From positions 205,836-269,835 of the forward strand of contig NMRA01000336.1 of the NCBI GenBank assembly GCA_002633005.1: a stretch of 64,000 bases of DNA. Direction: 5' to 3'. This DNA comes from Phoronis australis. Taxonomy: Eukaryota; Animalia; Phoronida. Below the pieces are notes generated by a model. It did not search any database. It had not been told where the DNA came from and saw only the letters and a program-made list of their open reading frames with translations. The position numbers and the translations under genes are program-made. Of this stretch, positions 896 through 30,680 are shown piece by piece. How positions within the stretch are numbered: position 1 is the first letter of the stretch; each line of letters begins with the position of its first letter.

Positions 896-2164
896 TTAGA
901 AACTACTGTAAGCATTGCCCACGTTCTTCTCTTGTTTACCAAAGAGAAATTCTTTATGTTTCTGTTCCTGGTGTAAGCTTTGGTAGCCATGTAAATGTTT
1001 AATGTCTTTCTTAAACTCCTGTCCATAGCCGTTCTTGTCCAGATGGTATTGCACTAGTGCTGCGGTGTCAACTTTCTCAAGATGTCTCCTATCAACCAGC
1101 TGTTCATAGTCTTTCAAAATCTCTGGATTCCAACTACTTTTTTTAGTTTGTGAATTGTTTAAGTTTGCCACATATCCATCAACAGGTTTCGGGTGATAAA
1201 ATCTAGAGACATCTACATTTTTCCCCTTTAAAACATTGATACCATTCCGTGATTCCCTATGTTCCTTCAACTTTGATTTCCGTACAGCCTTTAAGTCCTT
1301 GGCTATATTTCTATACTGTTCCTTGTACTTCCGCAACCTTACTTTCTGCTGGTGCTGCTCTCGATAACCTTCAGGAACATATAAACTTGGTAAGCTACGG
1401 TGATTGATTTTATCTGTTCTCTTCTTTTTGCTTTTCATTTCCTGTTGACCATTGTTAGAGTGTAAATCCTCAGTTTCCACACAGTTTCCAATATCAACAC
1501 TTTCACAAGATAACTCCTCGTTAGTTTTCACAAACGTCTTCTCAGTTACAAGCTTTGGTTTTGTTGGCAAACTGGCATATCGATTTTTCTTGTTTGCAAC
1601 TATACCTTGCCCCAAGACACCAGTATTTTTCACAGTGAGATGACCTGTTCCTTTCTTCATATTTGAATCACTTATTTCAGATTTTAATGAGGAATTCGAA
1701 ACTTCTTGATTCTTTACCTCCTTGTTCATTTTAGTTTCTCCAATGCTTACATCGCCATTGTTGCTCTTAACAACATCTTTATGAACAGGGCGGCCATTTT
1801 TCCTACTGCCATTTTGCGGTTCTTCAATTATCACATCTAGATTTCTGTGGCATGCAACAACAATATCCAGTGGCTTAGCTGTATCATTTTTTGGTTTTAC
1901 ACCTATACCATCCTGGTTTTCGATGACTTGGGTTACATTGTTATTATGAGAACTTGATTTTGAAACTGCGTTAGAGTCAGATTTTGCAGCACCAACAGAT
2001 TCAGCTAGCATTTTCACCTCGGCTACTTTCTTGTTAGAATGTGTAGCAAGGCTTTTTGTCTGTGCTTCTATAGCAGAGCTTCCAGTATTCCACGAAGGTA
2101 GACAATTTTCTTTTGAGGGAACTATTTTAGATCTAGCATTCCACTTTACAGGAAAATTGGGTAC
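896..2164 (-). CDS. MAPT-like: Tau-like terminal coding exon (422 aa; starts with degenerate repeat VPNFPVKWNARSKI, then a long K/N/S-rich basic tail)
   Basis: atttcaag|GTACCC phase-0 acceptor, in frame with ORF 896..2017. Stop TAA at 898-896. Confidence 0.82.
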   Translation of the reverse strand, partial: VPNFPVKWNARSKIVPSKENCLPSWNTGSSAIEAQTKSLATHSNKKVAEVKMLAESVGAAKSDSNAVSKSSSHNNNVTQVIENQDGIGVKPKNDTAKPLDIVVACHRNLDVIIEEPQNGSRKNGRPVHKDVVKSNNGDVSIGETKMNKEVKNQEVSNSSLKSEISDSNMKKGTGHLTVKNTGVLGQGIVANKKNRYASLPTKPKLVTEKTFVKTNEELSCESVDIGNCVETEDLHSNNGQQEMKSKKKRTDKINHRSLPSLYVPEGYREQHQQKVRLRKYKEQYRNIAKDLKAVRKSKLKEHRESRNGINVLKGKNVDVSRFYHPKPVDGYVANLNNSQTKKSSWNPEILKDYEQLVDRRHLEKVDTAALVQYHLDKNGYGQEFKKDIKHLHGYQSLHQEQKHKEFLFGKQEKNVGNAYSSF

Positions 2165-5100
2165 CTTGAAATAGCATAGGGACTACATGAACAAAGTAGC
2201 ACAGCTATAAAGACCCAGGTGACCAGCATTCGTGTTCAACCGTTTCAAAGTTATCACAAGAAAAAAGTTAACTTTGACTCAAACACAACTGAAAGATATT
2301 TTGCAGGCCTGCAGTGATTCAATGATTTGATGGCAACACTCTGTGACAAATGATTAAGACACCACAAAACTGATTGCTTTGTATAACAATGACACAAACA
2401 CAAAGAACTGACTAAGACTTCAGAAAGTATAATATGTGCCTCAAATGAAATCCCGTTCAGAGATAAAAGAAGAGTCACAGTATTTGTTACATGTCTTGTG
2501 AAATGTGACATTTACTCCTGACAAAACAATCAGGCATGTCAGAGATCAGATTAATTTACATCTGAATTTGGTCTCATTTACAATAAATCATTGTTTACAG
2601 AACATTTATCAACCTTTCCTTTGAAGTGATTTGAAGTTCAGCATGACAGCTTGTGCAACATGATCAAAATGTACCAAGGATTAATTGCAAGCAACCAAAC
2701 TGGTCATACAAAAACATATATATTAATGAAATCGTGCCACTCAAAATGAGGCAATAGTCACTTGCGGGAGTCCTGTATTTTGAGAACCAGTTTAGCGCCT
2801 GTTATTCAGTGGAGAAAACTGATTCTCAAAATGCAGGATTCCTGTAAATGGCTATTACTCAAAATCATAAAATGCACATAGGCATGCAGCTTATAGTCAA
2901 TCAGGTTTGGGTAAGAATTAACCACGCAGAAATGATGGGTGTTGTGTTTTATCAGTCATGCAACAGGGAAGGGAATATGATTGTTGATTTTATCAAATTA
3001 ATAGGGCAAGCTATCCCAACATCCAAACACTTCTCATTTCAACAATTTTATGTTTGTAAATCCAGACAGTGTCTCATAAAGTAATGTTACCTTCTTCTCA
3101 CCACCCCCAGGAACATGGTTTTTGTTGTCACATGACCCCACTTTCGATTCGGCTTTCCAGTCCAGTTTTATATTCTCAATCTGAAGGAAACACAAAATTC
3201 TGACAAACCAATTACCATAATGCAATATTGATCATTACAAATTAGTACGGCTCCACAAAAATGAAAAGAAAATTTAATGACCCTTGATATTATTTGAATT
3301 TCTGAGCAACAACATTAAATTTGTAATTTTGTTTGTCATAAATTTGTTGAAACAAAAATACTTATTTCCAAATCATGTCCTTGGAGCAGGTCAGTTGCAA
3401 TGATCACACCACTGACAGTCAACACCTACAAGCACTTTGCACACCAATTAAATCATGTCGATTGACAAAAACACAAACTTCACAATTTAAAGTAGACCAC
3501 CTGTCACTGTCTTTGCACACTCCACATATGCCTCCTTGTGTTGAAGCATTACCTTTTTATCACCACCTCCTGGAATGTGACCTTGGTTTTTCAGAGAGCC
3601 AACTCTGGGTTCTGCTTTCCATTCTAATTTCCTATTTTCTATCTGTTTTTAAAGTACACAAAAGAAAAACAAAACGTTAATATTAATAACGTCGTTCTTC
3701 ACATGAACTTTTCCATCACCGTACAAAAATACAGCATGGGTTTGCCAGACTGCGGTAAGACAATTAGATAATGAAATGTACATCTTAACTACGATTTCAG
3801 AGTTAAAATTTTCTTTTTACCAAACTTCAATTTCACTTGTCTCACGTGTCATTATTTTGGTAGTTGTTAAGTGTTTGTGTAAACTAAATTAAATATCAAA
3901 CATTTATAAAATGTCAACACTGTTTTGCACTTTCTCCATATTGCCAGACACATCCATCTTTTGTATATTTAGTTAAAATTTTAATGTTGGTGCCACATAA
4001 TGTCACCAATATGTAAGTTAACAAAAGCAACGTAGAGCGTTGACATGCACCCAGAGTGTGCATCACAAACGGTAACATTATAAGGGATCAATACTCCTTT
4101 GTTCAAATATTTCCATGATAGTCAAATCTATCCAAAGTCATCATCAGTTGTGCTCTCCTGAAGGTGCATAGGTTAAATTTCACGAAAACTCATCAAAGCA
4201 CTAAATAAAGGTAGACAATTAACATTTGCTACTAGAGAGTGCCTTTCTAGTCAATAATCAACACCATCCATGCTTTCTTCAAAATGAACAAATATGCCAA
4301 ATTTCATGAAGATCCTTCAAAGAACTTCATAGATATTGGCACAGAAACAAACAATGAAATTGCCACCACAAGATGTCACAGCAGCCAGATGTGTCCAAAA
4401 ACACTTATGCTCTGCTCAACAGGAACAGATAAGCCAAATTAATGAATAGTACAAAGAACTCTGTCACTCCTGTCAGTAGTAGACATTGGCCCACATGTAA
4501 GAAAACATAACTAATTATGACTAGTAAGCACCACAGTAGATCAGTCTGAATCTTTATGTCCACCATACTCTTCTCAGTAGGGACCCATCTACCACCTTCC
4601 ATTGTGACTCTTCCAGCAATTTGACAAATGTCAAAAACAGACATGAAAATAACAAAATTAGCGGCAAGAGGTATAATAGGTCGAATCTGATGAAACAGGG
4701 TAGGTTTCATCACTTCCTTCCCGGACACTTGTTTGCCAAATTTGGTGAAGATCTATCAGTTGAAGGAAGTTGGTAGACATTGAGGCATACGCCAAGAAAA
4801 CCTAAATCAAGATGAGGGATGTCGTTCTTGCCCCAAAACCATAGTCAGGAACACATGCTATTGAAAGTCCAAAAGGTCATGTTGATGTTTTAATAGAAAC
4901 CTATTTACTGAAATACTAAAAATATCAGCTGAGCAACTTGGCAGATACTGATGCAAATGCAAAAAAAATAACTTCCTACAGAGGGAACAATGACATTCAG
5001 ATCTGCTGGAAACTCCTCGCCATCAGTTGTCAGCTTCATAAAAACATAGCTGCCAAATTTCAGATCCTGCGAGGGTTTAGGTCTTGCAGCAGTACACACC

Positions 5101-8100
5101 TGATGCCCAGACCCCAGACAGAGGTTACGGCAATATGCACCCACATACTTGTAAGTATATGAGTAAGTAAAAGAAAGATCTGACTGAAAAGAATAAAATC
5201 TACACAAAATTCAACACGTTATGAGAATCTTAAATAAAAACACTTGTGCAAACTTCTTAAATCTACACTATGAGTGGGATAAAAGAATATTTTAAGTATT
5301 AAAACAACTGTTCTTATCTTAGTCATTGTTACCTTTTTGTCGCCACCTCCAGGTGTATGACTTTGATTCTGGAGAGAGCCAATCCTGGCCTCAGCTTTCC
5401 ATTCTAATTTCTTATTTTCTATCTGTTATTAAGATACATAAAGAGAAAGGTGTTATGTGTATAAAATATCACGGAGGACAATACCTTTATCTATTGACAG
5501 TTAATTATAAAGCAAACTGGGTGAATACTTTCAAGCATTGTTACTGCGACGAAAACGTATCAAGTTACAAGAATTATGACAGAACAGATAAATCTCTCTT
5601 CATGTAGAACTTTTCGTAAGAACATTTAATGATCATTCCTCTTGGTGCTCTGGGATAATACACAAAACAGGCATGCGGGAAGCAACTGATAAAATGAGGG
5701 TTTTTTACCAAAAAAAAACAATGAACACATAAGGTAGAATAGGAACAGTCAACCCCAATGTCCATTAGACATACCACTGTATTGCCCCCTCCAGGCATGT
5801 GATGAATGTTGGCTTTAGAGCCACATTTAGCCTGGGCTTTTTCCTTGAAATCCAACTTGTGAGTCTCGATCTGCAGAAAATAAAACTGACTTTTGCAAAC
5901 TTTATAAATTCAGGCTTTGGTATCCGGAATTTCTGAAAATCAACTCCAAAGATGAATTATTCATAAATTGGCATACCTTTAGGGTTTCTAGCACACCAAA
6001 AGACAATGTGCCATTACGTTTTCAAAACTAGGACCTCTGCCCGGTTTCATGAAACAGTCCCAAATGGTAACTCAACTAACTTCCCTAAATCTATTGTGTA
6101 TTTGTGGACTTTCATGGTGACTGTCCTTTCTCATACAGACTTTTTTCAGTTTTAATTCTGTAGTCAATAAGTTCAAACAAGATTAGACGGGCGGATCTGG
6201 CGCATTTTCACTCATTTTCAATCGTTCTGCGGTTGCACTTTGAACGGGAAGAGAAAATGGCATGAATTTTTGCATGTGGATTCCTTAAAGTATACTCTTT
6301 CAAATGTTCTGCAACAACGTTTTTCTCAGACTTGTCGTTTTCAAGTTATTCGACTTTGAATTTCAAAAAAAAACGCAAAATTTCAATTTTTTCAAAAAAT
6401 TTACGGAAATTTTGTGAAACTACCAATTTAGATAGAGCTTTGAACAGGCTTTCAGAAGATATTTTTCATTTTTTGCTAGGATGTCTACTTATTGAATTTT
6501 TATTCGAGATTTTCTGACAGCACTGTTCCTTTGATGAGCCCTCTTGCTGCATGGATGATGGTTTAGCTTCTATTGAACAAGACTGTAGCCTATTTCTTAC
6601 AGATTTATGACATTAAAGTTCGTCATATGAATGTTATGATGTTCATCATCACCACTATCATAATATTCATCATCTTCGTAATCATCTCCGCCAACGTCTT
6701 TTCAGTTAATTTCGCCAAGTGTCGCTCAAGACTGTAGCCCATTTCTTACTGAATTCTGACCTCTATGTTCGTCATATGAATTATCATTACTTGCATTGTT
6801 CACCATAACCACCATCGTCGTCATATTCATCATCTTCGTCATCATCTCTATTGCCATCTTTTCTGTTAATTTTGCCAAGTTTCGCTACTTGGAGCGCTTT
6901 CATTTTTTTGTTCGTTCGCACTCTACAGGTAGTAGTTTTCGTCCAATCCACACGAAATTTATACAAAACTTGTACTTTCAGAAGCAAAGAAACCCCAATG
7001 TTTTTCATCATAATCAAATCCAAGATGGTGGATGTGGCGGCCATTTTCTTTCAATTCCAGATTCAAATGCTTATAGAGGCCGTAATTTTTGATGTACACA
7101 GTTGAAAATCAGCACAAAAATTGTACAACTTGTGTGCTACAGATGTGGAGGAAATTGTTCATTTCCAGTCAAAGATGGTGGAAATATCTGTAATTGTGCA
7201 TCCACACCTCGATTTTGGGCAAAAAAGGCTTTCTCGTGTAGAGGGCGCATTACATCACCAATTGCTTCAAAAATTTTCAGGTATTAGTTTTCTATGCCAC
7301 GTTATTATCCAGTGCTGTGTAACCGGAAGTTGCGGATCTGACGCAATTTGACCCATTTTCAGTCGTGCTGGAGTACCATTTTAAACCGGAAAAAAATGAT
7401 GTGAATTTTTGCATGTGAACTCTCTGATGTATACCCTTTCATATGACTAATAACAATTTTTTCTCAGACTTATCGTTTTTGAGTTATTTGACTTTCAATT
7501 ATAAAAACAACAAAATTTGATATTTTTTGCGAAACTATGTAGTTAAATAGAATTTTAAACGGGCTTTCAGAAGATTTTTTCCATTTTTCGCTAGGAGGCC
7601 TACTTTTCAAAATATTTGAGATTGTCTGATAACGCTGTTCATTTGTTGACCGATTTTGCTGCGGTCTAGTTTCTAGTGATCAAGACTGTAGCCTATTTCT
7701 TACTGTTTCTGACATCTTCGCCAGTCCTATGAATGTTATAACGTTGTTCATAATCGCCACTTTCATCATCATCATCATCATCATCATCTCCATCGTCTTT
7801 TCAGTGAATTTCGCCAAATGTCACTCCTCCGAGCACTTTCATTGCTGATTTATTTTGGAACAACCAGGGTGTTTATTGCCAAGGAACAACCAGGGTATTT
7901 ATTCCCATTAAGTACAGCGTGAAGTAGCTCAACAGTTCAAAAATAAATTAAGCTTCAACAACGGATTGCAGTTCTTTGTAAAAGCGCAAACTTAGATTTC
8001 TTTCACTCAATCTAGAAGAAAAAAGTTTACCATTTTGTTTCCACCTCCTGGAGTGTGGTTTATGTTTGCCTTTGATCCACACTTTGGTTGGGCCTTTTCG

Positions 8101-11100
8101 TTAAAGTCCAGCTTACGGGTCTCAATCTGTTTGAAATATAAAACACAGCCAGTTACGTGAAGCCATCAATGAACAAAATGTGCCAGCAGCTGAATGTAGA
8201 GCATTCCAGACACAGGTGGATGGAACAAAGTGGAAGAATCCCTCGATTTGCTTTAATGGCAAGTATGGACAAAGATATTACAAGCTGGAAACGTCTCTTA
8301 TAGGCCTCGCTATGCTATATGTTTCCTTAATGCCAGATAATCCCTGTTGATGCTAACCCTGATATCCATAACACATTGTGCAGCATTTAGAAAGTGAAGT
8401 GAGAGGCTTATGAAAAGAACCATTAGTTCACCTGTACGTCTGCAGACAGCTAATGCAACAGGATGTGTATAACTTGTGAATGGTGGAATTCCTCTTGGGC
8501 AAAGCAGTCATTTACAAACTTTGGTAGGAAATCACAAACCTGCCGTGACTATTAAACCACATCTGTGAGAGAGTATGTGAGCCTAGTACCCCTCTCCCAA
8601 GGGGGTTTGGTGGCCTGCCTTATTTTCAGAAATTGTCATATTAATCCAAATATTGACCATTTTATCATCATCGGCTCTTTTGCAAAACGCTCTTGAGTAT
8701 AATCAAGAGGACATGTGTTAGCATCCTTATTAGGATTCCTTGTACACCTTTTCGTTTTTGAGAAAGCACTAGCAGTTTGTCAGTTGGCAAAAATGCTAGG
8801 ATTTTAGGCATGCTGGCAGAGATGCCATTCACCAACAGGGCACTTCTGCAAGCAGAAGATCAAGCACATTCATTTCCTGCCACAAACTCATCAATGTGAC
8901 GATAAACAAACTTAAAGCACACATGTTTCTTTGAAGTTAACAGTAAAGTTACAAAATTGAAAAACAAACATGATAGGAGATAACATTGTCACTTTTTTCA
9001 GTCTGACATCATTCTTTGTAACTAATAAACAGATACTAAACTATTGCCTGCAGTAGTAAACATGTTCATGCATGGTTTCTGTGAGAACAAATCGGTAGGT
9101 CTTATTAAACGTGCGAGTGGACATTTTTCTTTTAAAAATCACGCAAGACTGGAAGAGTCCTTACTTCAACCACAATACTTACAACTTTATCCCCACCTCC
9201 CGGTGTGTGGTGTAAGTTGGCTTTAGATCCACACTTAGGCTGTGCCCTCTCTTTGAAGTCCAGCTTGTGAGATTCAATCTGCAAAAAACAAAATACGAAT
9301 TGCTTTACGATAACATCGACAACATTGTGGCCATAACTAGATAATCTAGCATCAAGAGAGCTCGGAGAATCATCTTTTAACTAAATCTTTGTCTGACATA
9401 ATTGTAAAACCAAGATTTTCATGTTGAAACAATGGAAGCCAAAAACTCTTTAAAGATTGAGAAAAATCTTCAGTGCATAAAACTCTCAGATGTGACAAAA
9501 AATCAGTTAAATAAAATACATTAAGTTGAATATAATGATGTTGAACATAACTGTCACTGACATGAGCCAACAAGAAACCAGGGACCCAGACTAAAAGTTA
9601 GGAGCCCAGATTTTTGTAATGATAGCTACGACAATCAGGCACATGAATTCCCAAAATGAACAGGGAGTCAGATCCTAAATCTAAGTACTAATATCATCCA
9701 TGGACGGATCATTGACTTTGAGACATAATCTGGTCTTTCCAATGCTGTCAAATACTTCATTTTCAATAATGGTAGTACCATAGTACTGCCTTGCATATTC
9801 GGCGTACAGCGTCAATCATGATTCGTCTCCGCAATCACAGTCAGTCGTTAAGAAACAATCACACAGTCATCAAAAAAATTCATTACCTGCAACAGAACTC
9901 TAAGGAAATTAATGAAATGTTGGAATATGTGCTTCATTTTGATGAAAATACTAAACATAATCATTATTTCTAAAGAATGGAAGCAGCACTTCATCACAAA
10001 ACAACAATGTTCCGAGTGCATAGGTTTACTTGATGGTTACAAACGCTCAATGTGTACCCACTCATGAACTAGAAGTCGGTCACTCTTCCAGTCAAATGTT
10101 TTAGTTTCTTGTCATAGAATTTCACCGAAAATGAGCAAAATCATAAAAGATCGTTTCCTCTTTACAATGTTACCAAAGTCATAACCTGCATGGTCTCCTA
10201 CTCAGAAACCGTCAATCGGGTTTGCACAGCCTGGCTGTGAACTCATTGACAACTAAACTAAATGTTAAGGTGAGGAAAGCTCTCAAAATTCAAACGGTTA
10301 AAATTTGTCTTTTTTGTCAAGGCCTCTCTTTTGGACACTGTAATTACATTGAAGTATGGTTGCTCATCATTTCAGGTACGACCATCGATCCATTTACGTA
10401 GGCCTACTAAATAAAGTTAGATTTAAGATCCGCGACTCCAGCGACTTCAGTGAAATCATGAAATTTCAATTTCTATTATGATGTGGCTTGCAGCTGTTAT
10501 TTTTTAACTGGAAAATTGGTGCATTTCATGCCGTGGGTGTTCCGTGTCGGTTAGCGGATGACCTGTTCACCATCCAAGAGTTTCAAAACGGTCGAGCAGG
10601 CTTGTTTTCTCCAATGGTGTGAATTAATGACAACAAAACGCCATGGAATGTACTGAACAATTTGTCACCTTCATCTCTCTATCTCCGCTCAGTGAGCAGA
10701 CATTTTAAGTTTTGATTGACCCACATGTCTTTTAATTGGCCTATATATAGCTATAAGCATGTGTATTTGCTGTGACTGATTATGAGACTTTGTGTTACAT
10801 GGCAACTGTTGCCACGTTTACTCAAATTTGACTTTGAAATTTTTGCGACACGGTCGGATATAAATGGAAATATATCGAATTTGCCCAAATATGGTTGTAG
10901 TATTCCCATGATACGCCATTTGTCAAAAAGATATTAAATGTATTTACTAGGAAAATACTCCATCACGTAATCAGGTTACTTCGCTTGTAAATGTCAACGT
11001 GATTTCGTGAATATGTAGAAAACAAGCTATTGTTTTCTACATATTAACTAGGTCACCAGTTGGGTGACATAACTGGTGAAATTTTGGCACTCGGCTAGTA

Positions 11101-14100
11101 ACTTACTCGTCTTGGGTGACAGCTAACGTATATCCCTGAAGCGCCACCAGGGAGTGCACAAGTTCACCCCTCGCAATTAATGACTTACCTTAACATCACC
11201 ACCTCCTGGCACATGGCTGACATTTGCGCGTGAACCCACTTTGGACTCAACCTTCCATTCCAATTTGCGAGTCTCAATCTATAAGAAAAATGCAGCCCAA
11301 AGCCCAAAGTTATCACTATTGCACACTTTCAATTGTAGAGGCACACTTCCAACAAGATTTTAAGAATAAGGCAAATGACAGCAAGTAGTGACAGGATAAA
11401 CAGTAACAAGATATAATATTCTCCCTCTTTTTCTTCAGTTAAAGGGAGTTTGACAGCGATTCATCTATCAACTTCCAAAACATTTTCACATGTATTCTAA
11501 TATATTCCCAATCCAGATTTTAAGGACCACAGATGTGCTCAGTCGCAACAACCAAACCTGCTTACACAAACTTCACCTAAACAATTGAATCTGAATTTTG
11601 ATCAGGAAAACATCAAGGTAAGAAAAACAGCTCCACATCTTCACACAAATTAGATTATGTTTGTGAACCATGTCCCTTTATGACAGTTACGCACCGTTAC
11701 CGGCTGGTCAAAGCTTAATTACACTCACACCAAGGAATCAACACTGAGGTGAAAGTCTAGTCTGTTTTGCTACATTTGAAGGTTTTTAGTGAACGTATTT
11801 CATACAAACCACACCTGTTTCATGACATTTGCTGAAAGTCATTTAAAAATAGGATTTTTATGCGCCCACATAAGTGGTAGCATATTGCCGTCATCTCTGT
11901 CTGAGCGTCCGATGCCCAGGAGCTGTGTCTCCTAAACCCCTCACAGGATCTTGATGAGATTTGGAAGACGGTGTTTCTAATCTATTAAGCTGACGACGGA
12001 TGACAACAAATTTCAGTTTGGGCCACCTAGAGGCCCTTTTTACTGTTTTCGAGTCTGATTTTGCTGTCCGCCCCTCTATTAACCAAACCGCTTTGAAGAT
12101 GATTGTGAAGATTGGCATGTATGTTATTACTATAAAAAAGATAGCTGACAGTGATTTTCCGACTACTTTGGCACCTCCTAGTGGCAGTTTTGTTTTTCTG
12201 TGCTCATGGCTGTATCTGATAAACTGTTTGCAGGATCTTTACTAAAGTTAGCAAGTGTATTTGTATGATGTTGGCAACAGACGACAATGACGTTCGCACG
12301 GATCTTTCCACCAGTGTGCTCCCTAGTGGCAATTTTAGTTTTTCACATTTACCTCTGTATATTCAAAGGTCCTCCACAAAGTTTCATAAAATTTGGAATA
12401 TAGGCATCTACCATTTTCACATACATTTGAGGCCACCTAAAGGCCATTTTTACTGTTTTCAAGTCTCTTTTTTGGCGTCCACCCCTCTATCAACCAAACC
12501 ATTCTAAGGATGATTTTGAAAATTTCGGGTGTATATGTTCTCAGTGTGAAGAGGACAGTTGATGATGAAGACTTCGACTACTGTGGCACCTCCTACTGGT
12601 GGTTTTGTTTTGTTTTGTTTTGCGCTCATAGCCTACTGCAGGATCTTTATTAAATTTAGTAAGTGTATTTATAGAAAGCTAACAATAGACAATGACTTGC
12701 AGGCAGCCCCTGTGCTCCCTAGAGGCAATTTCATTTTTTTCTGTTTTCCTTTGTTTCTCTGAAGTTCTGTGTTTGATTTTTATGAAATTTAGTAAATAGC
12801 ATTCTATTGAAGAAGCGACAGCATGTTCTGTTTTCAGATGGATAGGACATTTCGCACTATAAGTGGCTATTCTTATGTTACAAATATACAACTCTTGAAG
12901 TACACCGTTGGCGGTGCATTCGTGGGCGCATTTCAATGCTCCACTTTGCTCTTGTTAAATATCAGTTAGTGTCAGATGCACAGTTCACAATATTATGCTG
13001 GATTACATGAGCTCATTACAGTGTTCTGTTCCTTTTCCAGACGTGAGGGGTGCTGAACGTGCGATAAAATCTGAATCTTTTGTTAACTGCCCATCTCAGT
13101 CTTTTGTCCCGTATGATAACAAGCAGGCCAATTATCTCCCAGGCTTCAATGGAAACGTATGGAGGTTGCACGCTATTACCGAAGGCGTATGAACACAGTC
13201 AAACCCAGTGCGTCCATTTGGATAGAATAGATTAACTTCTGTTGTAGTTGGGCGATTTTGGGGATTCAAAAACGGAACATGATCAGCATTTGATGAGGAA
13301 TTCAGAAACACTATTGGTTTAAGCTCAAATATGTTATAACTTAACTTTCAGTTTTATCAGCCCAGCCCAGTAAGTCTAGATACGATATGATCGGAGATTA
13401 GAGCAATTATCGAACAAAAGAGCGCAGGCCCTCCAACCATAAATGCCAGAATGGAGTTAATCAGTCGAGTAAAATATTGGCTACAGAGGTAAACTTCCCA
13501 ACTTATTGTTGGGCTATAGAATCAAACAAGTTGGGAGCAACGGGATGTCGCCATCATGTTATCAGATGGAAGCAGTCAAGAGAGCTGGACTGTGTAAACA
13601 TTGGTTATTACACTGTCAAACTGAGAATGACACAGCTGTAACCCGACTGGCCAACCAGTCAATCGGAATACTCAATCCACTGCGCGGGTGCGTAACGCCT
13701 TTGACTTGCCGACCTCAATTAAATTGCCCAAATTTGAAGACAATATCTCAGACATTCCTTAGTATTGACTAAACAAGACTTGCAATGTGACCATGGCCTT
13801 TGACACAGTACGACGTCAACTGAACTCAAAGGGTAATCCCCAGGTGGGCATCAACCTCCATACCAAGTTTGAGGAGGGTATTCCAAGCATTCATTAGTTA
13901 TTGATCCAACAAGATTGTCTTGACATGTTATGTGACCTTGACCTTTGACCTTGTAACCTCTTAATTAATAGCCGTCTACATGTTAGTATGAACCTCCATA
14001 CCAAATTTGAGAACCATATTCCCAGGTATTCTTGAATTATTGATGCAACATTTTCATGGGCAATGTTTAACTTACCTAAGTTTACATTTCATCCTGAGTA

Positions 14101-17100
14101 ACCTCAGAATCTTCTACAGGTCGTAATAAAAATTAATCAGCATAATACAGTTTATGATCACCCAATTTTAGAACGACAGACCGGCCAACATGTACAAATC
14201 AATCTATGCATCACCTACTGGCAGGCAAAACTATTCAGGATGGATACACCACACATTCTTCTAAAAATAATGACATTCTTGCCTTGCTTTCTAATGCAAT
14301 GGCAAAACATTTATGTCCAAGAGTAGACACTAATTAGAAAATTAGGTTTTCCACTCCAAGGTGATCCTAAGTGACACCTCCCCTGAAATGCGAGTATTGC
14401 AAACATTCTTCAGTTTGGAACGTAATGGCAAACGGGTATTTGAAAACTGAAAAATGCATGCCATTTTTAATTATTTCTCCCATATAAGGAAAACTTTTAA
14501 CCTCTGATCTGTCTGTCAGCAGCATAACATGTTCATCTCATTTACACTAAAGTCTCAATCAGACTGTTTCCATGCAGGGACATTTTACCCGTCAGCTTTA
14601 AAGAAAAAGCTTCCTAATTAACATTCATATTAATTGAATTTTATGCACTTCTTTGTAATCAGAATTTATATTGTTTAAATGGTTTTTGCTTAGTCTTTGC
14701 AATTATTCCCATTAAATAAAGATTTCATAGCGTGCAATGTTACAGTGCGATACTAAAAAGATGATAAAGCCTGTCTTGCCTTTTTGTCTCCACCTCCAGG
14801 TACATGGTTAACTTTGGCTTTAGATCCCAGTTTAGGCTGCACGCTTGTGTAGTCCAACTTGCGAGATTCTATTTTTACCTAAATACAAAATACAATTCAC
14901 TGACAATGAACATGTCAGTAATCAAACACCATGGTGATAGCAGTTAAGGTGTTCACTGGACCCTAGAAAAATATCCAAATTTGGCTGGTTGGATTCAGTG
15001 ACACGTGAAATTTTCATACTATCCTTTAAGCATTGTTCTACAAAACAGCAATTGTTTTCAACATTCTCTATTTTAAAATGAGGGGCTTTCAAAAACAGGA
15101 CTTTTATAACATTCACGAAAAATCTTAAAACTTGTACAACACGAAAACGAAATATTTTTAAGCCTTCATCTTGAACATTGACATCAAACAAAATTTGGTC
15201 ATTTTTTAAAAATTGCTGATTTGTTTTGGAAAGAGTCTCCCCTTTTTTGCTAAATCTTACTTAAAATATATGGTAGAATGACTCAATTACTGGCAAGTCA
15301 AAGTCAAAACTGAAATTCTACAGGCTTTCTAAAGTTTTAGAATGTAAATACTTTTATTAAATTAAAATCTTCTGACATGCAGATACTTAGCTAAATACAC
15401 AAAGTTGTAGATAAGATCCTATATAGAGTTAGATTGAGTTGGGGTGAGCAAATCAAAACAGACTCAGAAATATATGTGAATAAATTATGAACTTGGATAA
15501 ACAATGTTTAAATGATTGGAGAGTCAACATAGGCAACCCTATTAGATGACCTATAAAACGACACCCTTGGAGCAACTGATGCAGTCACATAAGGGTAATG
15601 TATGGTGAAATGTTAACCCAGCAAGTGGTGCACTATAAACAGGAGAAATGGAAGAGGTATGCGTAATTTTCAATAATGTTGACAGTGGCACAAAAAGTTA
15701 ATTGTTTGGTTGGTGACTTCTGACCACAGTTTTTGCTACCTCAGTTCTCATTTGGTGACCCGGGTTTTTCACCGAGCCGCATTTGGCAAATTGGTAAGAG
15801 GCAAAAACTGGTATCAGTGTTTTGGTTTTATTTGACATTTTCATTCAAACATTTACCATTCCACCACTATCATTTACTATACAACTTATGCAATGCGTCA
15901 ACTTTAAACATAACATTTTCATAGCGCCAACTAGTGATAAATTCAATGACTTGCACATCAATCTTCGATAGCTTCAGTGTCCTCCTGGTTGCCGAACAGT
16001 TCAACTAACTTTGCAGTTTACATCAGTGCTACTCTGGTACTGCAATTAAGTTGGTTTTATAAATCCTTTAGACTCACTAACATGGCAGGCAGTATAACAC
16101 CTCAACATCTTATACCATTGAAGAAAAACCACTTACATTTCCTCCCCTGGGTGTATGATTGACATTTTGAAATGAGTTAATCTTTGATGACACATTTTTT
16201 ATATGTGGAGATCTGCCAACAGATGTCGACATGGCTGTGGCTGGTCGGGGACCTGCAAGAAGAAACGAAATATCAACAATGAAGTAGCAACATTGCAGTA
16301 CTGAGAAAACAAGTGAACAAGTTACTCAGTGCAGTCTGGCAAAAGGCAGCTACCAAAGTTTATATATTTGTAGCTTACACATCACTAGTTGTGTTGATAC
16401 CAGTGTATCAATGTGTTGAATATTGAATTGATTGAATACATGCGACTGATCCTGTAGTGATTCAAAGGCTGCAAAAGATCTAGACATTGCTATTGAGTCT
16501 CATTGTCATCGTGTTGAAAGATTTCTTACTTGTAACAGGAGATTCTGCTTTCCTCGGTGATGGTGTCTTTTTAACAGATGACTCGATCCTCGGTGAGGCC
16601 GACTTGACTCGTGATGGTGTCTTGCTTGCAACACTTCCTGGTGGACGTATACCGCTGACCTTAGGAGTTGACTTCTGATTGGAAAGAGAAACCAACATCA
16701 AACGGATCACACTTAGCACTTGATAAATTACAACAAAATATCAGAATATATCCTTTGATATTTCATCTTAGTTTGAAAATATCTTAATGAAGTAAATAGT
16801 GAAAGATTTCTGCAGAATTCTATACAAACTCATAGTTGCTAAGTATTGCTGTTTTCTTTAGTAACACAAACGAACATGCTAGGCACGTTTTGAGAATGCA
16901 ATTAATGGGATAGTCACTTATAGAAAACTTTCATTTTAAGAACCAGTTCTTTCCAATGTACAACAAGCATCAAACTGGTTCTCAAAATGCGGGGTCCAAT
17001 TAAGTGACTATTGTCAAATTACCTTTTTCAAATCTTTTTCTTCCTCAACGCCACTGTCTAATGATACATCTGAAATGTTAATTAAACTTTCGTGAGAAAG

Positions 17101-20100
17101 TGTGATCCATCAATTTATAACTGTTACTGCATACTTGTTCCACGATACCTGACAATGGTAGTTAATCACAATGGGCAACACACAGAAAGGAAACTTCTAA
17201 AAATGATTCAACATGTTATACCAAAAAAATTAATTTTATGTAAGTAAATGTGTGTGAAGCAGCACCGAGATGGTGATTTTTAAACAGCTGATCAAGTGCA
17301 GCTGAGCAATAACCTCAAGATTGGCAGTTTTGAATCAGTTTTATTCAAATTAGGTATCAACTTAAGTTGCTTCAACTCCAGTAATTTTGCCAAGCCATTA
17401 GTAAACTTAATCTTGGCACAACAAAACCAACAACAAATTGAACCAGCATCACCATGACGATTTTTCAAAATCGACCTTAGTTCCACAATAGTGATGACAT
17501 GGTACTGAAAGCTGGAGGAAACACAGAAAAGGCCTGTAAGGACCATCTGTGTGTCCCTCTTTGAGATTCAATGCTACAAAATTTTCTCCAAGATTGCAGA
17601 GTTATAATTAGAACAGAGACAAATATTATAAGCCACCTGGGGACAAAGGTTTACAAGTGATCATTTTATGGTTTCTCAAAACTGGAATAATATCATAATG
17701 CATGAAACAGGATACCTGTCAAGAATACCAGACAAGATTATAGCATTTTAATGCAATCCTCAACCATCCACAAAATGTTGTGGCACAAAACTGCAAATAA
17801 TCAGCTTGGTGCTTTTTGCACGTCTTTTCAGGGTTGCTATCCCACAATGCACTGCTTGTGACCAGTCATTTTGAGAAACACTAAAATGGTTAATAAGAAA
17901 ATATAGAAGCAATTGTTGGGGAATTAATTCAGAGGTACTAATAAACACAAGGCGTGCATTCCGTAGATACAAGGCATTTGCAAGACAAGTTAGTGTAATC
18001 AAGGGCTTCACCTGTAATGCATGACAATATCTCGCGAAGGCTATATAATATGTGACTTAGCTTTCCTTGCAAAAAAGTTGCTCTATGAAATGCCACCCAT
18101 GTCACATGTTGATGGGAAAGGAGTCTATTACGGCTAGGGAAATAAATTTTAGAACTGTGGCACTTGCATGGTTATACATTGAATAACTGAACCTGTAAAA
18201 CACTCTGCAACACTCAAACAAAAGACATGCTAATTAGTCTCTAATGAAGGCAGTGAACAACACAACACACTCTACAAATGGTGCAAAATCAGTAGTATAT
18301 AAACAAACGAAGACCTAGAAAACAAAATAAACCATGAAATTCAATAAAGTCCACAGAGTTGAAATGTCAGTCAGAAGCCTTGGTCATTGATCTATGCCAC
18401 CAGAGTATATTACAGGTAAAATTTTAAGCTTTCGGGAGTCTTAATTGAATGTACTGGTCATGTATACACGATATTGATCCTAATGACAACATTTCTTGTA
18501 AATGAGTGTATACCAAGTCATGTTATATATAGCATTCTCAACTCTTGTGCATTTGACACGTGACTGACAGTTCAATTGTAGTTAAAGGACTGCAAAGCAA
18601 TGTCTTTTATGTGTAATTTGTATGCTGCTGAAACAACCATGTATCGTATCAAAGCTCATCAATGCACATAAGACTGAAATGCCGGTGAGTTTTTATTGAT
18701 CACCTTAAACAAGGCTTTGCCACAAGCACGCAAAATAATAAAAAAAGAACATCAGCTACAGTAACGATATTCCACCTTTCTTTCTTGGTGACGACTGCTT
18801 AGCAGAAGTCGTTTTGGATGAGGCTGTTACGATCTTCGTCGACTTGATATTGACTGACGGTTGGGCAGACCTAGTCCTTGGGGACTGCTGTGTCTTAGCA
18901 CGAGGGGGTGCTTCCTTTTTCAACTGGACACCCACTTTGCTTGACTGTGATTGGCTAACAGATTTTGAGTTTGCTTTCAAAGATTTACTCTTGAGAGTTT
19001 TGTCAGTGGATATGTCTGACTTTCTCTCGGGACTTTTTGAACTTTCATTTTCTGTAAAAATGGTTGGAACATGACTGACGCTAGGTTCAGTTTGTCCTCC
19101 GATGCTCTCATCAACAATCCATGGAAATTGTGACATTTTTGTGTCACCTGTTGGTACCTCCTGAGCAACAGACTCAGGAGGTAGCTCAAGATCTTCAATA
19201 AATATGGGAGGTTCAAGGGGAGGGGGCTCTATATCTTCTTGATGAGATTTGTCGTCTTTTGCCTCTGCAGTTTCAGCTCGCATCAATGCAGTCATGACAA
19301 GGTCATGTGACTCATCTTCAATACTGTTACTAGATAATGACTCTTGCTGAGCTCTCGTTTGACCAGCCATTTCATTGGCTGGAGGTTCAGGCTCATCATG
19401 AACAAAAGACTGGGCCACAACATCACTGTAGGCAAATGGCTCAGGTCTAGAGGATGGATGTAGTTCAGAGAGCGTACTTTTGAGGTTGTGTTCCTCACTG
19501 GACAAAACAGCTGATTTTATACATACAGAAGAGTCAAGTGTGTTCTCATTAGCTGGAAAACCAATGTCAATGGCAGCAAGAGTTTCAAGGCAACTGCTTG
19601 GCTGCTCAGGTTCTGAACATGGAAGTTTAGCAGCAGGTTCACAACTTCTTGATGTGGGATACTCATCAAGGATGTTTAATCCTTGCTGTAGAGTAGGTGA
19701 AGAGTCAGCTAACTGCACATGTGGATCAGTGATAAAGGGATTAGTATTCACAGGACCAACCCTGTGTAGGGATGAATCCAAGGATTCAATTTCACTCACT
19801 TGTGTAGCAACTAAGGGATCACCACTGTGGACAAAAGGATTAATTCTCACAGTGTCAACAGTCTTGAAGTTAGACAAAAAGTCAAGTTGTGGCTCAGATG
19901 TTTCTTCTCCATGAGCTTCATATTGTTGAGACGGTGGAAATACACCGTGGCCATTTGCTAAGAGTTCCAGGGAGTCTTGCTTAGCCTGGGAGACCCCAAA
20001 TGGATTCTGGTTTGGCTTAGGCGTGGTGAAATCTAGCAAAAGATCGTCATTGGACTGAGCAATATCACTGTCAGATGATAGTGCTTTTTGTGAGGGAAGT

Positions 20101-20685
20101 GCTAAGTTTGGAGAGAAAGGATCAAAGTCAAAATCTTGTGAATGCAGGTTCTCCGATGGAGCATTCATGGAGGCAAAGCTGAAGGGGTCATATGGATCAT
20201 TTTGGATAACCAGAGCATGGGTACCAGTGTTCTTGGTAGCAACCTCCTCTACAGCCGCCATTTCATCTAAAAAGAACATTATGCAGTAACATTAAACAAT
20301 TAGTGAGTGATCTAAATTCAAACCCATATTATCCTAAACTCAACTTGGCTTGGGATTAGGTGCATGTGCAGGTCGCAATACAAGATAATTTGAGAAAGAA
20401 ATTCGCTGTAGAACATTGAGCTCTTACTGCCTCCAAATAAAGCCGTGAAGATGCAGAACATTTGCATAAATGTTTTTGTATTTTCAAACCCTATTCAAAA
20501 GTTATTGATGTGGTCCAGTTTTGTTTCTAGTTCTGACAGGCAACAATGGAAAAAGCACATCTTTGAATGGCTTATGAGTGGCATGATAACAACACCCTTT
20601 CCCAAACCAAAGCACTTCACAAAGCCAAATCACTAGATTTCCACTGCATATCTGCATGTTATACCCTCTTACCTGATATGTTCAT
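896..20685 (-). CDS. MAPT-like: Tau/MAP2/MAP4-family microtubule-associated protein, 14 coding exons, ~1275 aa, 9 microtubule-binding repeats. Join: 20685-20673, 20266-18776, 17069-17023, 16674-16530, 16252-16137, 14878-14780, 11278-11189, 9278-9183, 8126-8031, 5870-5775, 5422-5333, 3642-3553, 3180-3091, 2164-896
   Basis: Nine K/RxGS..N..H.PGGG-type repeats read on the minus strand, each flanked by an AG acceptor and a GT (once GC) donor. Exon lengths sum to 3828 nt with no frame break. The layout is acidic N-terminus, S/T/P/K-rich region, repeats, tail, as in tau/MAP2/MAP4. Confidence 0.93.
2753..2856. mobile_element. ~104-bp palindromic MITE (copy 1)
   Basis: AATAGTCACTT..ATTTTGAGAACCAGTTT / AAACTGATTCTCAAAAT..AATGGCTATT inverted arms. 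A related copy lies at 16910-17012. Confidence 0.7.
3091..3180 (-). CDS. MAPT-like: Tau-like repeat R9 exon (IENIKLDWKAESKVGSCDNKNHVPGGGEKK)
   Basis: ccttcag| ... |gtaaca; 90 nt; visible in ORF 3034..3225. Confidence 0.95.
3553..3642 (-). CDS. MAPT-like: Tau-like repeat R8 exon (IENRKLEWKAEPRVGSLKNQGHIPGGGDKK)
   Basis: aaaaacag| ... |gtaatg; 90 nt. Confidence 0.95.
4020..5150. repeat. Decayed HINE/Helentron-like repeat fragments
   Basis: Starts AACAAAAGCAACGTAGAGCGTTG (short hairpin). Recurring TGCCAAATTT(C/G)ATGAAGATC-like modules near 4295, 4735 and 5051. Confidence 0.3.
5333..5422 (-). CDS. MAPT-like: Tau-like repeat R7 exon (IENKKLEWKAEARIGSLQNQSHTPGGGDKK)
   Basis: aataacag| ... |gtaaca; 90 nt. 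Confidence 0.95.
5775..5870 (-). CDS. MAPT-like: Tau-like repeat R6 exon (IETHKLDFKEKAQAKCGSKANIHHMPGGGNTV)
   Basis: ttttctgcag| ... |gtatgt; 96 nt; partly visible in ORF 5574..5855. Confidence 0.95.
6190..7845. repeat. Intronic non-autonomous TE with internal tandem duplication (~1.14 kb period) and (ATC)n tracts
   Basis: GCGGATCTG.CGCA.TTT block at ~6191 and ~7332 with a colinear ~500-bp continuation. CAAGACTGTAGCC.ATTTCTTAC occurs three times (~6579, ~6727, 7681). Confidence 0.75.
8031..8126 (-). CDS. MAPT-like: Tau-like repeat R5 exon (IETRKLDFNEKAQPKCGSKANINHTPGGGNKM)
   Basis: tttcaaacag| ... |gtaaac; 96 nt. Confidence 0.95.
9183..9278 (-). CDS. MAPT-like: Tau-like repeat R4 exon (IESHKLDFKERAQPKCGSKANLHHTPGGGDKV)
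   Basis: tttttgcag| ... |gtaagt; 96 nt. Confidence 0.95.
11189..11278 (-). CDS. MAPT-like: Tau-like repeat R3 exon (IETRKLEWKVESKVGSRANVSHVPGGGDVK)
   Basis: cttatag| ... |gtaagt; 90 nt. Confidence 0.95.
11855..12956 (+). mobile_element. HINE/Helentron-like non-autonomous element with ~410-bp internal tandem unit
   Basis: TTTTTATGCGCCCAC 5' end with its inverted copy GTGGGCGCAT at 12922-12931, ending CTTGTT. Internal duplication GGCCACCTA.AGGCC.TTTTTACTGTTTTC at ~12022 and ~12431. Confidence 0.6.
13771..14232 (-). mobile_element. HINE/Helentron-like element with ~135-bp GTGACCTTGACCTTTGACC tandem units
   Basis: Starts AAACAAG. Two units, each with a GACCTT module and AACCTCCATACCAA.TTTGAG. 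Confidence 0.55.
14780..14878 (-). CDS. MAPT-like: Tau-like repeat R2 exon (VKIESRKLDYTSVQPKLGSKAKVNHVPGGGDKK), GC donor
   Basis: gtatttag| ... AAG|gcaaga; 99 nt, phase 0-0. Confidence 0.92.
16137..16252 (-). CDS. MAPT-like: Tau-like exon with repeat R1 (SPRPATAMSTSVGRSPHIKNVSSKINSFQNVNHTPRGGN)
   Basis: tcttgcag| ... |gtaagt. Resembles tau R1 [24 protein letters not shown]. Confidence 0.92.
16530..16674 (-). CDS. MAPT-like: Tau-like proline-rich region exon (KSTPKVSGIRPPGS...KAESPVT)
   Basis: ttccaatcag| acceptor and |gtaaga donor. Several SP/TP sites; 145 nt, phase 0->1. Confidence 0.88.
16910..17012. mobile_element. ~103-bp palindromic MITE (copy 2 of the 2753-2856 family)
   Basis: ATAGTCACTTA..ATTTTAAGAACCAGTT / AACTGGTTCTCAAAATG..TAAGTGACTAT inverted arms. 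Confidence 0.7.
17023..17069 (-). CDS. MAPT-like: Tau-like 47-nt micro-exon (DVSLDSGVEEEKDLKK)
   Basis: catttcag|ATGTATC...AAAAAG|gtaatt. It converts phase 1 to phase 0, which is exactly what is needed to join the flanking exons. Confidence 0.82.
18776..20266 (-). CDS. MAPT-like: Tau-like large acidic/disordered projection-domain exon (1491 nt, phase 1-1)
   Basis: Corresponds to ORF 18756..20279 (507 aa). Acceptor ctttttag|AT, donor AAG|gtggaa. D/E/S/P-rich, turning K/S/T-rich at its end. Confidence 0.88.
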
Positions 20686-27395: not shown

Positions 27396-30300
27396 TGTGT
27401 CATTCGCCAATACTTCTGTACTTTATTCGTACATATAATTTGGTTTCTTCGCTTCCGGTTGCTGTTCGACGAAATACAGACGTTCATGAAAGCCTATTCA
27501 TCTTGACTGGAGAGTGTGGGCAGACCTTGCCAGTCACCAGTCATTCTTCCCTCAACACATTGTCCAGACGACCCAGCGCCCTCGGACTTGGATATTTACT
27601 CGGACAGTTCCCACCAGGTCATCCTGATTGAGCTCACAATCCCGTGGGACAGTAGGGTGGAAGAGGCACACGAGCGAAAGAACTTGAAGTATGCAGACCT
27701 TAGGAATGACTGTCATGTTAACGGCTGGAGATGTTGGAGTTTTTTTGAAGAGAGTAAATTTTTATGGGGATATACTTCGCCCCTGTATGCCTGCGGCATT
27801 CAGGCCTAGACCGGGTTGAGTTCCAATTTCAGTCCGTTCACAGCTTTGCACAACATAACAAGTTCATATTTCGTTCGTCCATTCACAGTTATTCCATGAT
27901 CTATCTACCATCTCTTAAGTTGTGTTAACATTTTAAGCGTAAAATTCACCATAAGAACTCCAGTAAGATTTAGCGTGTGTAGCAGACTCGGGGCAAAACA
28001 AGAGCAATATGGCCGGTTTTGCCGACCTTCCGGTGACATCACATTGACTAACTTAGAAACACGCAAGTGGGCTACCGAACCATGCCCAATTATAGCACCA
28101 AAGCCATCGTATTTGACTAAATGTGAAACTATTAAAAGTTTTGATAATTGGAAGAACAATATAACTTATTTCTTGTCACTCGACCCCAATTTTGTGGATT
28201 ATACTTGGCAAAAAGCCAGAGTCCCTTTGAAGAGTTTAGTTGACGATACAGACGCTATACCTGAATCCCGGCGATGCACAGCCGGTCAGAAACTAACCCA
28301 CTTAAAATTCGTGTTAGGCCAACTGACCAATTATTGTCCGGTGATTGCCCGTATTGCTACTTTCAAACAATCTGCCTCACTTGTTGGTATATGGCAAACT
28401 ATCAGAAGTCATTATGGCTTTCAGACATCTGGATGACATTTCATTGGTTTGTCTGATATTCGCCTCCCACCCGAGGAACGCCCAGTAAATCATGTAATTT
28501 ATCGAAGACAATTTGCTCAGCCCGGACAACACCATCCAGCGTCATGGCGAGCTTATCACAGACGTGGAAGAGATGTCTTCGACCTTAGAGAATTTAGCAG
28601 TTCTCACTTGGTTACGCTTGATTCACCCAGGTTTACCTCATCTCGTCCAACAACATGGTCCTGAACTCCACAGTAAGTCACTTGCATCAATCAAACCGGA
28701 AATTTCGCAGGCACTCCAGCGAATTTGCTTGACGAGTTATAAACACTCGAAGATGCAAAGGTGTTGCGGGCTCTCCCTCGCAAGGCAACCTCAGTCCCTC
28801 GCCGAAGCCCAACAAAGCCAAGTCCACTGTGTAAACAGCCTCATCGCTCCCAGTTTGATCACTACTTGTCTCAGTGTCCCTACCTACCCGCTATTTTATG
28901 AAGGCCCGCTTCTCTGAGGTTGATGACCCCAGTCTCTCAGAGTGTCCTGGCGAGATTTGTGAAACCGAGGAGTCCCTAGCGAACCAAGTGCACATTATCC
29001 AGTCACCTTTCATTGACAATGTGTACCACTATCAACTGGTATGGCTTACTCTCGAATGTGGTGCTACAGGAAATATGATAGACGAATCTTGTGTGCGATC
29101 ACTCGGTACACCTATCGTCCCCAACACACATTATGCTTTCCACGCTGATGGTGTCCCCCCACTCGATGTTGTCGGCGAAACCAAGATCACTTTCATGCTT
29201 AATTGATAGTCACAAATTGGTTTTCGAGGGCCTGGTCATTAAGACACTTGATGTAGACGTCCTTGCTGCTACTACATTTATGGTGAGAAACAATACCTCA
29301 GTGCACCCAGCTAAGAAAGAGGGGATGTCGATGTTTATCGCTGTGATCACTCTACGTCTTTGAAAAAGACAGCCACTTGTCCGAGACCACATGTTCTGCA
29401 TTCCCCTCCTTCAGCCACTGTGGTATGGCCAGGAGACAGCCTCAACCTTGAAGTCCCTGCTGAATTACTTGGACATAACCAGGAGATACCGATTAACCCC
29501 ATACAGATTCCCCAAGTGCCCAATGTTGCCACCCTAGTGACTTGTGGCCCAATTACCGCAAATCATTACTGCTAACCAGGCAATGTACACCTACTAAATG
29601 ACACAAATGAACCCCGGTTCTTACGCAAGGATGAACACTTTTGTCAGGTTCACCATGTATTCACACCTGTACCAACAATGGTAGCACCCTCCCAAACATC
29701 CTCACCAACTACGCAACATAGGCATTTTCGCTTTGCTTCAGTCAATCCCGATGGAGTTTTACCGGATATGTCACCCAGAAGGTTTTCGAACGCCTACACG
29801 ATTCATTTGCTACAATCTTCACCCCAAATTTTACTGCTTTCAATGGGTCCGCGCTCGTCGATTTGAAGCCTCTGTTAACATGGGTTCCACTCAGCCACCC
29901 CAACGCAAGGGTCATCTACCCATGAACTTACGGACAAAGCTCCACAACCTCCAACAGAAGTTTCACGACCTTGAGGTACTCCATGTCTTTCTTCCTCTCG
30001 AAGATGTGAAGGTCCAAGTTGAGTATCTCGACCCATCCTTCCTGGTCAAAAAGCCCAGCATTGGATTTCGACTCATGACAGCTTTTGCGGATGTTGGAAG
30101 TTATGCCAAACCTCAACCATTACTCATGCCAGATGTAGATTCAGTCCAACGCAAAATTGACCGGTGGTGATTAAATCGCCAAGACGGACCTCACGAGTGC
30201 CTTTTATCAAATTCCCCTCTCGCGAATCTGTGGCATGGTAACCCCATTCCACATGGCATCCGTTTCTATGCCAGCTGTGCTATGGGGATGCCGGGTTCAG

Positions 30301-30680
30301 AAACAGCATTAGAAGAGCTTACCTGCTGTGTTCTTGGTGATCTTCTCGAACAAGGCATCGTAACCAAGTTGGCCGACAACTGTGGTGGGCAGACCCCAAC
30401 TGAACTACTTATTACCAATTGGGAACTGGTACTTTCTGCCCTTGCTACGTCTGGTCTACATTTGCCACCTACCAAAACGGTCATTCCCCTCAAGCGCGCA
30501 ACTATCCTGGGTTGGATATAGGAAGGTGGCACCCTTCAGGCTAGCAGTCATCACATCACTTCGCTTGCTTCGTGCAACAAGCCTACAACCGTGTGTTAGA
30601 TGCATTCTGGTGGCTGTTCGATGAAATACAGACGTTCATGTAAGCCTAGTCGTCTTTTATTATTACTGGCGATTCACACA
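27396..30680 (+). mobile_element. Degenerate, internally deleted Ty3/Gypsy LTR retrotransposon (gag, protease, RT remnants; partial LTRs)
   Basis: Termini TGTGTCATTCGCCA ... TGGCGATTCACACA. Shared LTR segment GCTGTTCGA.GAAATACAGACGTTCATG at 27461 and 30613. gag-like ETIKSFDNWKNNITYFLSLDPNF, protease-like LECGATGNMI, RT-like [37 protein letters not shown]. Many stops and frameshifts. Confidence 0.88.
27560..27745 (+). mobile_element. Fragment of an RLE-type (HERO/R2-superfamily) non-LTR retrotransposon endonuclease domain
   Basis: DLDIYSDSSHQVILIELTIPWDSRVEEAHERKNLKYADLRNDCHVNGWRC matches the PD..IELTVPWE....AHERK..KY..L pattern of restriction-like endonucleases. Confidence 0.8.

Follow-up and report, generated by a model that had tools for sequence, protein, structure and literature searches.

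A tau-like gene on the minus strand of a 64,000-nucleotide stretch of DNA from Phoronis australis (contig NMRA01000336.1, positions 205,836 to 269,835, hereafter the window) carries three NPF and two DPF tripeptides together with a clathrin-type DDLLLDF motif at the start of one long exon. Judged by its sequence, the gene is a member of the tau/MAP2/MAP4 family from a non-chordate invertebrate. The motifs exceed chance expectation and stand ahead of nine tubulin-binding repeats in a frame of 1275 residues that is intact on paper, and both NPF and L[LIV]D[FL] recur in lophotrochozoan relatives. As read from the letters, the motif feature is real, recurrent across a large group of animals and not found in print; its function and its splicing are predicted. 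Regarding function, we lean by a narrow measure toward a putative microtubule-bound tether for clathrin and EH-domain machinery.

Motifs of the Projection Domain

A preliminary description of this DNA had placed an endocytic-adaptor type of motif cluster in the acidic projection domain of a tau-like protein. Direct reading of the sequence finds all six motifs in a single minus-strand frame, at the start of a 1491-nt exon (below, the long exon). The three NPF and both DPF lie exactly where they had been placed, and DDLLLDF is present one codon away from the approximate position given:

20181..20192, minus: YDPF, first DPF motif (DPF itself 20181-20189), also of the YxxPhi form
20115..20132, minus: FDFDPF (within DFDFDPF), second DPF motif (DPF itself 20115-20123), no true FxDxF
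20028..20048, minus: DDLLLDF, clathrin-type motif of the DLL / LLDF form, differing from the canonical clathrin box
19998..20006, minus: QNPFG, first NPF
19833..19841, minus: INPFV, second NPF
19734..19742, minus: TNPFI, third NPF, closest to the TNPF type

Between its outermost motifs, the first DPF and the last NPF, the cluster spans 152 acidic residues, which correspond to residues 30-182 of the modelled protein, at the end of its arm most distant from the tubulin-binding repeats. The acidic setting is confirmed as well, the first 200 residues of the modelled protein containing 29 D/E versus 7 K/R. When the 496 residues of the exon are shuffled, 0.07 NPF and 0.11 DP[FW] are expected, while 3 and 2, respectively, are observed; at least five NPF/DPF motifs were reached in 1 of 200,000 such shuffles and, when the initial 200 residues of the exon alone were shuffled, in 0 of 200,000. 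None of the five NPF anagrams occurs in the long exon, and FxDxF, DPW, and WxxF are likewise absent by pattern counts. No folded domain was recognized by Pfam, since neither the long exon nor the last exon of the gene gave a match at E up to 0.1, and an ENTH, ANTH, PTB, or mu-homology anchor was not found in either exon at that threshold. The long exon displays a cluster of the endocytic accessory type, i.e., NPF, DPF, and clathrin motifs together in a low-complexity acidic region. Between the first and second NPF, LLANGHGV (19935-19961, minus) resembles the LLANGGHGV of a human MAP4 peptide in a supplement of PMC10333884, probably by chance.

Architecture of the Gene

The tau-like context is borne out by the repeats: all nine repeat-bearing exons tested (9/9) pass the curated PF00418 cut-off of 27 bits, with scores of 28.4-59.6, and microtubule binding and stabilization are predicted from them. 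The best repeat matches come from Nucella, Haliotis, Lingula, and Mercenaria. In a tree of 36 rows built on about three repeats, the gene falls outside the supported chordate group, the phylum being left unsettled. These best matches, together with the DSGVEE exon shared with Lingula and bivalves, make a lophotrochozoan source likely. A 14-exon model on the minus strand starts with the ATG at 20685 and ends with the stop at 896; its frame stays open over 1275 residues, its acceptors are AG, and its donors are GT apart from a single GC:

20673..20685, minus: predicted first coding exon, ATG, four codons plus one base, phase-1 donor GTAAGA (from sequence)
18776..20266, minus: long exon of the projection domain, 1491 nt, phase 1 at both ends, weak donor
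18692..18775, minus: read-through tail of the long exon, stop 18756-18758, AATAAA about 60 nt beyond (from sequence)
17023..17069, minus: predicted 47-nt exon 3a with a DSGVEE motif
16530..16674, minus: exon 3, basic, proline-rich, joint to exon 4 in 4 RNA reads
16137..16252, minus: exon 4, tubulin-binding repeat 1 (Pfam, RNA joint)
3091..14878, minus: eight phase-0 exons with one repeat each, namely 14878-14780 (GC donor), 11278-11189, 9278-9183, 8126-8031, 5870-5775, 5422-5333, 3642-3553, and 3180-3091
896..2164, minus: predicted last exon, 422 residues, opening with a degenerate repeat-like stretch

The model has the layout of the tau family, with an acidic N-terminal projection followed by a basic proline-rich region and the repeats. 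Per 100 residues, it contains 14-23 D/E versus 3-5 K/R up to residue 400, after which K/R rise to 19-21. The long exon, whose motif stretch (19734-20189) lies in a 511-codon open frame on the minus strand, follows the same course, acidic in its first 400 residues and then basic and S/T/P-rich. The phase of the first coding exon is compatible with both the long exon and exon 3a, and the long exon, with phase 1 at both ends, can be skipped in frame to leave 778 residues. The read-through tail is a possible alternative 3′ end, with a predicted product lacking the repeats.

Three raw RNA runs with the same species label were each read to 18-19%. Intronic repeats take up most of the reads, and coverage of the gene is minimal; the joint between exons 3 and 4 agrees with the model and is the only one of its joints seen in RNA. 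The joining of the long exon to the repeats is inferred mainly from relatives, as motifs and repeats share one chain in the database models of Lingula, Littorina, Mercenaria, Pecten, and Gigantopelta.

Motif Classes in Lophotrochozoan Proteins

Residues 1-260 of the long exon, compared with longer proteins, matched none of 973 candidates at E up to 10 and, as no alignable homologue was found, the question was turned to the recurrence of motif classes. The ESM Atlas returned no usable match for the motif region of Littorina. Relatives were chosen by their repeats alone (the best 120 of 7311, the best 120 of 5808, and the best 150 of 1604). From the two best-120 lists, one protein per named lophotrochozoan genus was taken, giving a set of 18 from which a short Dreissena fragment, two further Haliotis, and unnamed rows were left out. 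Counts cover the sequence before the first repeat (the N-terminus), and expectations were derived from shuffles.

NPF, which had been named beforehand along with DPF in the preliminary description, is found 14 times versus 1.1 expected, in 7 of the 18 proteins. Clathrin-type patterns are likewise in excess, with L[LIV]D[FL] at 8 versus 0.55 (8/18), D[LM][LM][GL] at 7 versus 0.6 (7/18), and LIx[FW] at 7 versus 0.39 (7/18); the LLDF of the long exon is one conservative change away from the latter. In the same 18 proteins, the controls stay low: the five NPF anagrams together occur 4 times versus about 5 expected, other xPF tripeptides 11 versus 14, NP followed by another hydrophobic residue 5 versus 8, and L[LIV]E[FL] 0 versus 0.75. 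Keeping one protein per lineage leaves NPF at 10 versus 0.70 (5/14) and L[LIV]D[FL] at 6 versus 0.40 (6/14). Four proteins outside the first set, one of them seen before and one from another scallop, contain 4 L[LIV]D[FL] versus 0.29 and 1 NPF versus 0.46.

With regard to position, the outer half of the N-terminal arm holds 37 of 39 motifs. When Nucella and Littorina are aligned, all three NPF, LIDF, and IDLLI are kept, compared with 119 of 814 tripeptides overall, and LIDF followed by NPF is aligned in three of four scallops. The flanking residues are also biased, although some of the cases depend on one another: the residue before NPF is T in 10 of 21, versus a local T content of 6%, T being the commonest residue there, and A, L, V, I, or M follows in 14 of 21.

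Other Animals

The comparison groups outside lophotrochozoans differ in composition. Vertebrate tau and MAP2 have no NPF or DPF in 53 proteins, nor in 20 more. Among 36 arthropod-like proteins, a group sorted by sequence signature, NPF occurs 5 times versus 2.5 expected, never as [TS]NPF, and L[LIV]D[FL] is absent. Two sea urchins exhibit LLDL plus a canonical clathrin box while one starfish has none; of two tunicates, only Clavelina displays ILDL/IVDL-type words.

Regarding MAP4, two of five fish proteins harbor [TS]NPF (3 motifs versus 0.06 expected) and that of Arapaima has the canonical clathrin box LLDVD plus a DPF. Two of the five are without any such motif, and none has a cluster like that of the long exon. 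The fish N-termini appear to be of two kinds, with either a canonical clathrin box plus DPF or a [TS]NPF just before an E/K-rich stretch (2/4). The mammalian MAP4 N-terminus presumably carries the same clathrin box.

Likeness to Known Clathrin and EH-Domain Ligands

In a human phage display study, TNPF is the commonest of six variants counted, with 51 text occurrences versus 6-23 for the others, and 14 of the 15 distinct NPF rows shown are Eps15-EH matches, including QNPF and INPF types (PMC8769072). The QNPF and INPF of the long exon resemble these Eps15-EH-selected types, the same source supplying the EH flank preference used here. EHD proteins prefer an acidic run beside NPF (PMC13282721). 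Such a run is present at the second NPF of Nucella and absent at the NPFs of the long exon, so that partners of the Eps15/intersectin type would be likelier than EHD here. For clathrin, the bait consensus is LIx[FW] and LIDF peptides were selected, e.g., from ACK1, LIDF being the commonest of the clathrin-type variants counted (PMC8769072). The mollusc LIDF fits this consensus, whereas the LLDF of the long exon is a near variant and not a strict fit; in the table of that study, LLDF is not a clathrin match in the 5 shown of its 8 occurrences. DDLLLDF is present as proposed and its motif class is enriched in relatives, but LLDF is neither the canonical box nor a strict LIx[FW].

The tails of endocytic accessory proteins (Dab2, Eps15, epsin, AP180/CALM, stonin-2) consist of long disordered regions with a mix of DLL/DLF, DPF, and NPF (10.1101/2024.09.30.615448), and the TNPF of stonin-2 is an Eps15-EH match (PMC8769072). 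While the long exon shares the DLL, DPF, and NPF mix, these proteins anchor through a folded membrane- or cargo-binding domain and the anchor of the present gene would be its tubulin-binding repeats. Because such a folded domain was not found, the product is not filed as an endocytic accessory protein, although it is predicted to work like the tail of one.

Microtubule proteins with clathrin motifs have been described before. The clathrin terminal domain is bound by LIDL motifs of GTSE1 (PMC7041688) and by an LIxF motif of HURP (DLGAP5) (PMC10333884), in both cases from within a disordered region. Both are unrelated to tau and act at the mitotic spindle. The available passages on them mention no role of NPF or DPF, whereas the long exon combines one clathrin-type motif with five NPF/DPF; with this single motif, it lacks the several tandem or phospho-switched clathrin motifs of the GTSE1/HURP type. 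Regarding the tau family itself, "clathrin" and "endocyt" are absent from the main text of an evolutionary survey (PMC4815063), and MAP4 has been linked to endosomal PI3K signaling (PMC11380499). No publication describing NPF, DPF, or clathrin motifs in the projection domains of tau-family proteins was found, in a literature coverage that excludes most subscription journals. The link is therefore less novel than earlier suggested, GTSE1 and HURP being precedents for clathrin-motif microtubule proteins in general; what was not found in print is its occurrence in the tau/MAP2/MAP4 family in combination with NPF.

Among the closest proteins are those of Lingula (XP_013402001.1), Nucella (KAL8559909.1), and Littorina (KAK7092404.1), which have the same succession of arm, basic proline-rich region, and repeats. 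The repeat region of the gene is 45-53% identical to theirs over about 280-340 residues, and they likewise carry NPF and clathrin-type motifs. The gene differs from them in an arm that cannot be aligned, in having DPF and NPF in one tight cluster, and in a 422-residue tail for which no kin was found.

Further Features of the Gene and Window

Among the homologues compared, none matched the last exon. Relatives mostly end within about 60 residues after the last repeat, unlike this 422-residue exon. The usual final pseudo-repeat exon was not seen within the 64-kb window and may lie beyond its start. The second repeat exon apparently uses a GC donor (GCAAGA, 14779-14780, minus). In repeat 1 (16137-16252, minus), KINS is found where relatives have KIGS, at the place of the KXGS phosphorylation motif. 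The DSGVEE of exon 3a is common to Lingula and five bivalves on the tree list, Pecten having DSGFEE, and three insect proteins of that list have DSGVDE; no DSGVEE-type motif was seen in its gastropod, echinoderm, tunicate, or vertebrate proteins. DSGVEE is thus a short conserved motif. Elsewhere in the window, retroelement remnants lie at 40468-40839 (plus) and 47841-48155 (minus), with zf-RVT and RT_RNaseH Pfam matches, and the frames 27900-30521 and 38260-38808 look retroelement-like by eye, with no Pfam match.

A Putative Tether and Its Alternatives

In the mechanism proposed, the long exon would be spliced to the repeat exons and the nine repeats would hold the long isoform on microtubules, the acidic arm standing out from the lattice and bearing the motifs at its tip. 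Acting jointly, several motifs, each weak by itself, could then bind EH domains of the Eps15/intersectin/EHD type as well as the clathrin terminal domain; the AP-2 ear may be a further ligand. Coated pits, coated vesicles, or recycling endosomes would in this way be kept near microtubules, or the protein would be brought to endocytic zones. In-frame skipping of the long exon would act as a switch, the 778-residue isoform being without the link.

A number of results weigh against such a tether. As the long exon has no alignable homologue, its own motifs are not demonstrably conserved in place. Conservation against a diverged background, which holds for NPF and the clathrin-type motifs as recurring classes, fails for DPF: DP[FW] is found 4 times versus 2.5 expected in the 18 relatives, leaving the AP-2 part supported by this gene and by some isolated cases. 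Two DPF anagrams are also raised in that set, DFP at 8 (in one protein only) and FDP at 7. The canonical clathrin box L[IVLMF]x[IVLMF][DE] has no exact match in the long exon and is not enriched in the 18 relatives (2 versus 3.7 expected); over all proteins compared, it is present in Lingula, Tubulanus, Dimorphilus, Arapaima MAP4, and the two sea urchins. The choice of the L[LIV]D[FL] and DLL patterns came after the mollusc sequences had been seen. NPF is absent from 11 of the 18 relatives, both cephalopod proteins are devoid of NPF, DPF, and L[LIV]D[FL], and at the aligned places of the scallop Ylistrum both LIDF and NPF have been lost. The main statistical gap is that expectations come from shuffles, without a proteome-wide background of acidic disordered regions. 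From the phage display study, it can be added that 9 known motifs were all missed by the clathrin bait and that human MAP4, among the rows listed, is associated with an unrelated bait only (PMC8769072). To these are added several points on splicing. No joint from the long exon was seen in the three RNA runs at the depth given above, where coverage is near zero, and the exon itself is represented by about one read pair in the direction of the gene (X1) and one opposite (X3). With a matrix built from the other 11 GT donors of the gene, its donor scores 1.6 versus 7.0-12.2 for those donors, other GT sites nearby scoring up to 5.2. An in-frame stop follows 20 nt past the donor, and an AATAAA 59 nt further.

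The weak donor, stop, AATAAA, and missing joint are those expected if the long exon were mainly terminal in this species, read-through to the stop at 18756 giving a motif protein of about 508 residues without repeats and hence no tether. This has a low probability in our view, for the last part of the exon is the basic, proline-rich stretch found ahead of the repeats in relatives, the phase of the exon is compatible with exon 3a, and the gene models of relatives join motifs and repeats; moreover, AT-rich introns often contain AATAAA, and at such low coverage a joint would not be expected. It can also be hypothesized that the projection exon is a mostly unconstrained spacer, comparable to exon 4a of Big tau, which is poorly conserved in sequence (PMC9755724), with motifs that arose by chance or are functionless leftovers. 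The failure to align the long exon, the many relatives lacking motifs, and their joint loss in Ylistrum would agree with this, and shuffles may understate the natural frequency of NPF- and LIDF-type words. However, the excess is more than tenfold and persists with one protein per lineage, the NPF anagram controls are clean, and there is no excess in two comparison groups; with the flank preference and the retention of motifs at aligned places in snails and three of four scallops, an idle spacer seems just as improbable as a terminal exon.

Other explanations grant the motifs a function while denying them the tether. The clathrin-type motif could recruit the protein to the clathrin complex of the mitotic spindle, after the manner of GTSE1 and HURP, with little role in membrane traffic. 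In relatives, L[LIV]D[FL] is spread about as widely as NPF and also turns up in several proteins without NPF; it matches the LIDL of GTSE1 (PMC7041688) and the LIxF of HURP (PMC10333884), both microtubule proteins. NPF, which outnumbers the clathrin motif 3 to 1 in the long exon and shows the T preference, would nevertheless be left unexplained, and the single clathrin-type motif compares with five in GTSE1; the chance of a mere spindle role is judged to be small. About as little probability is attributed to the motifs being selected and binding otherwise, either to promiscuous readers of phenylalanine motifs or as aromatic stickers in condensates of projection domains. EH domains indeed accept a wide range of F-containing motifs and F residues serve as stickers (10.1101/2024.09.30.615448), 12 of the 18 F residues of the long exon lie within its first 180 residues, and neither DPF nor the canonical clathrin box is enriched. 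Against this, what is in excess is N-P-F and L-[LIV]-D-[FL] in exactly this order, while NPF anagrams, other xPF tripeptides, and L[LIV]E[FL] do not exceed expectation.

Significance

Projection domains of the tau family are usually regarded as fast-evolving spacers with few known ligands. Recurring motifs of the clathrin and EH types give the invertebrate arm a specific predicted job and suggest a possible direct route by which coated or recycling vesicles may be held on microtubules; they also draw attention to the N-terminus of vertebrate MAP4. For EHD proteins, how vesicles are held there is largely unknown according to a 2026 review (PMC13282721). A more far-reaching and unlikely proposal is that the tau/MAP2/MAP4 protein of the bilaterian ancestor served as an endocytic scaffold anchored to microtubules, of which lophotrochozoans would have kept the EH/clathrin arm and sea urchins and vertebrate MAP4 parts, neuronal tau, MAP2, and arthropod tau having lost it. 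If this were true, a direct clathrin link would have been overlooked in mammalian MAP4.

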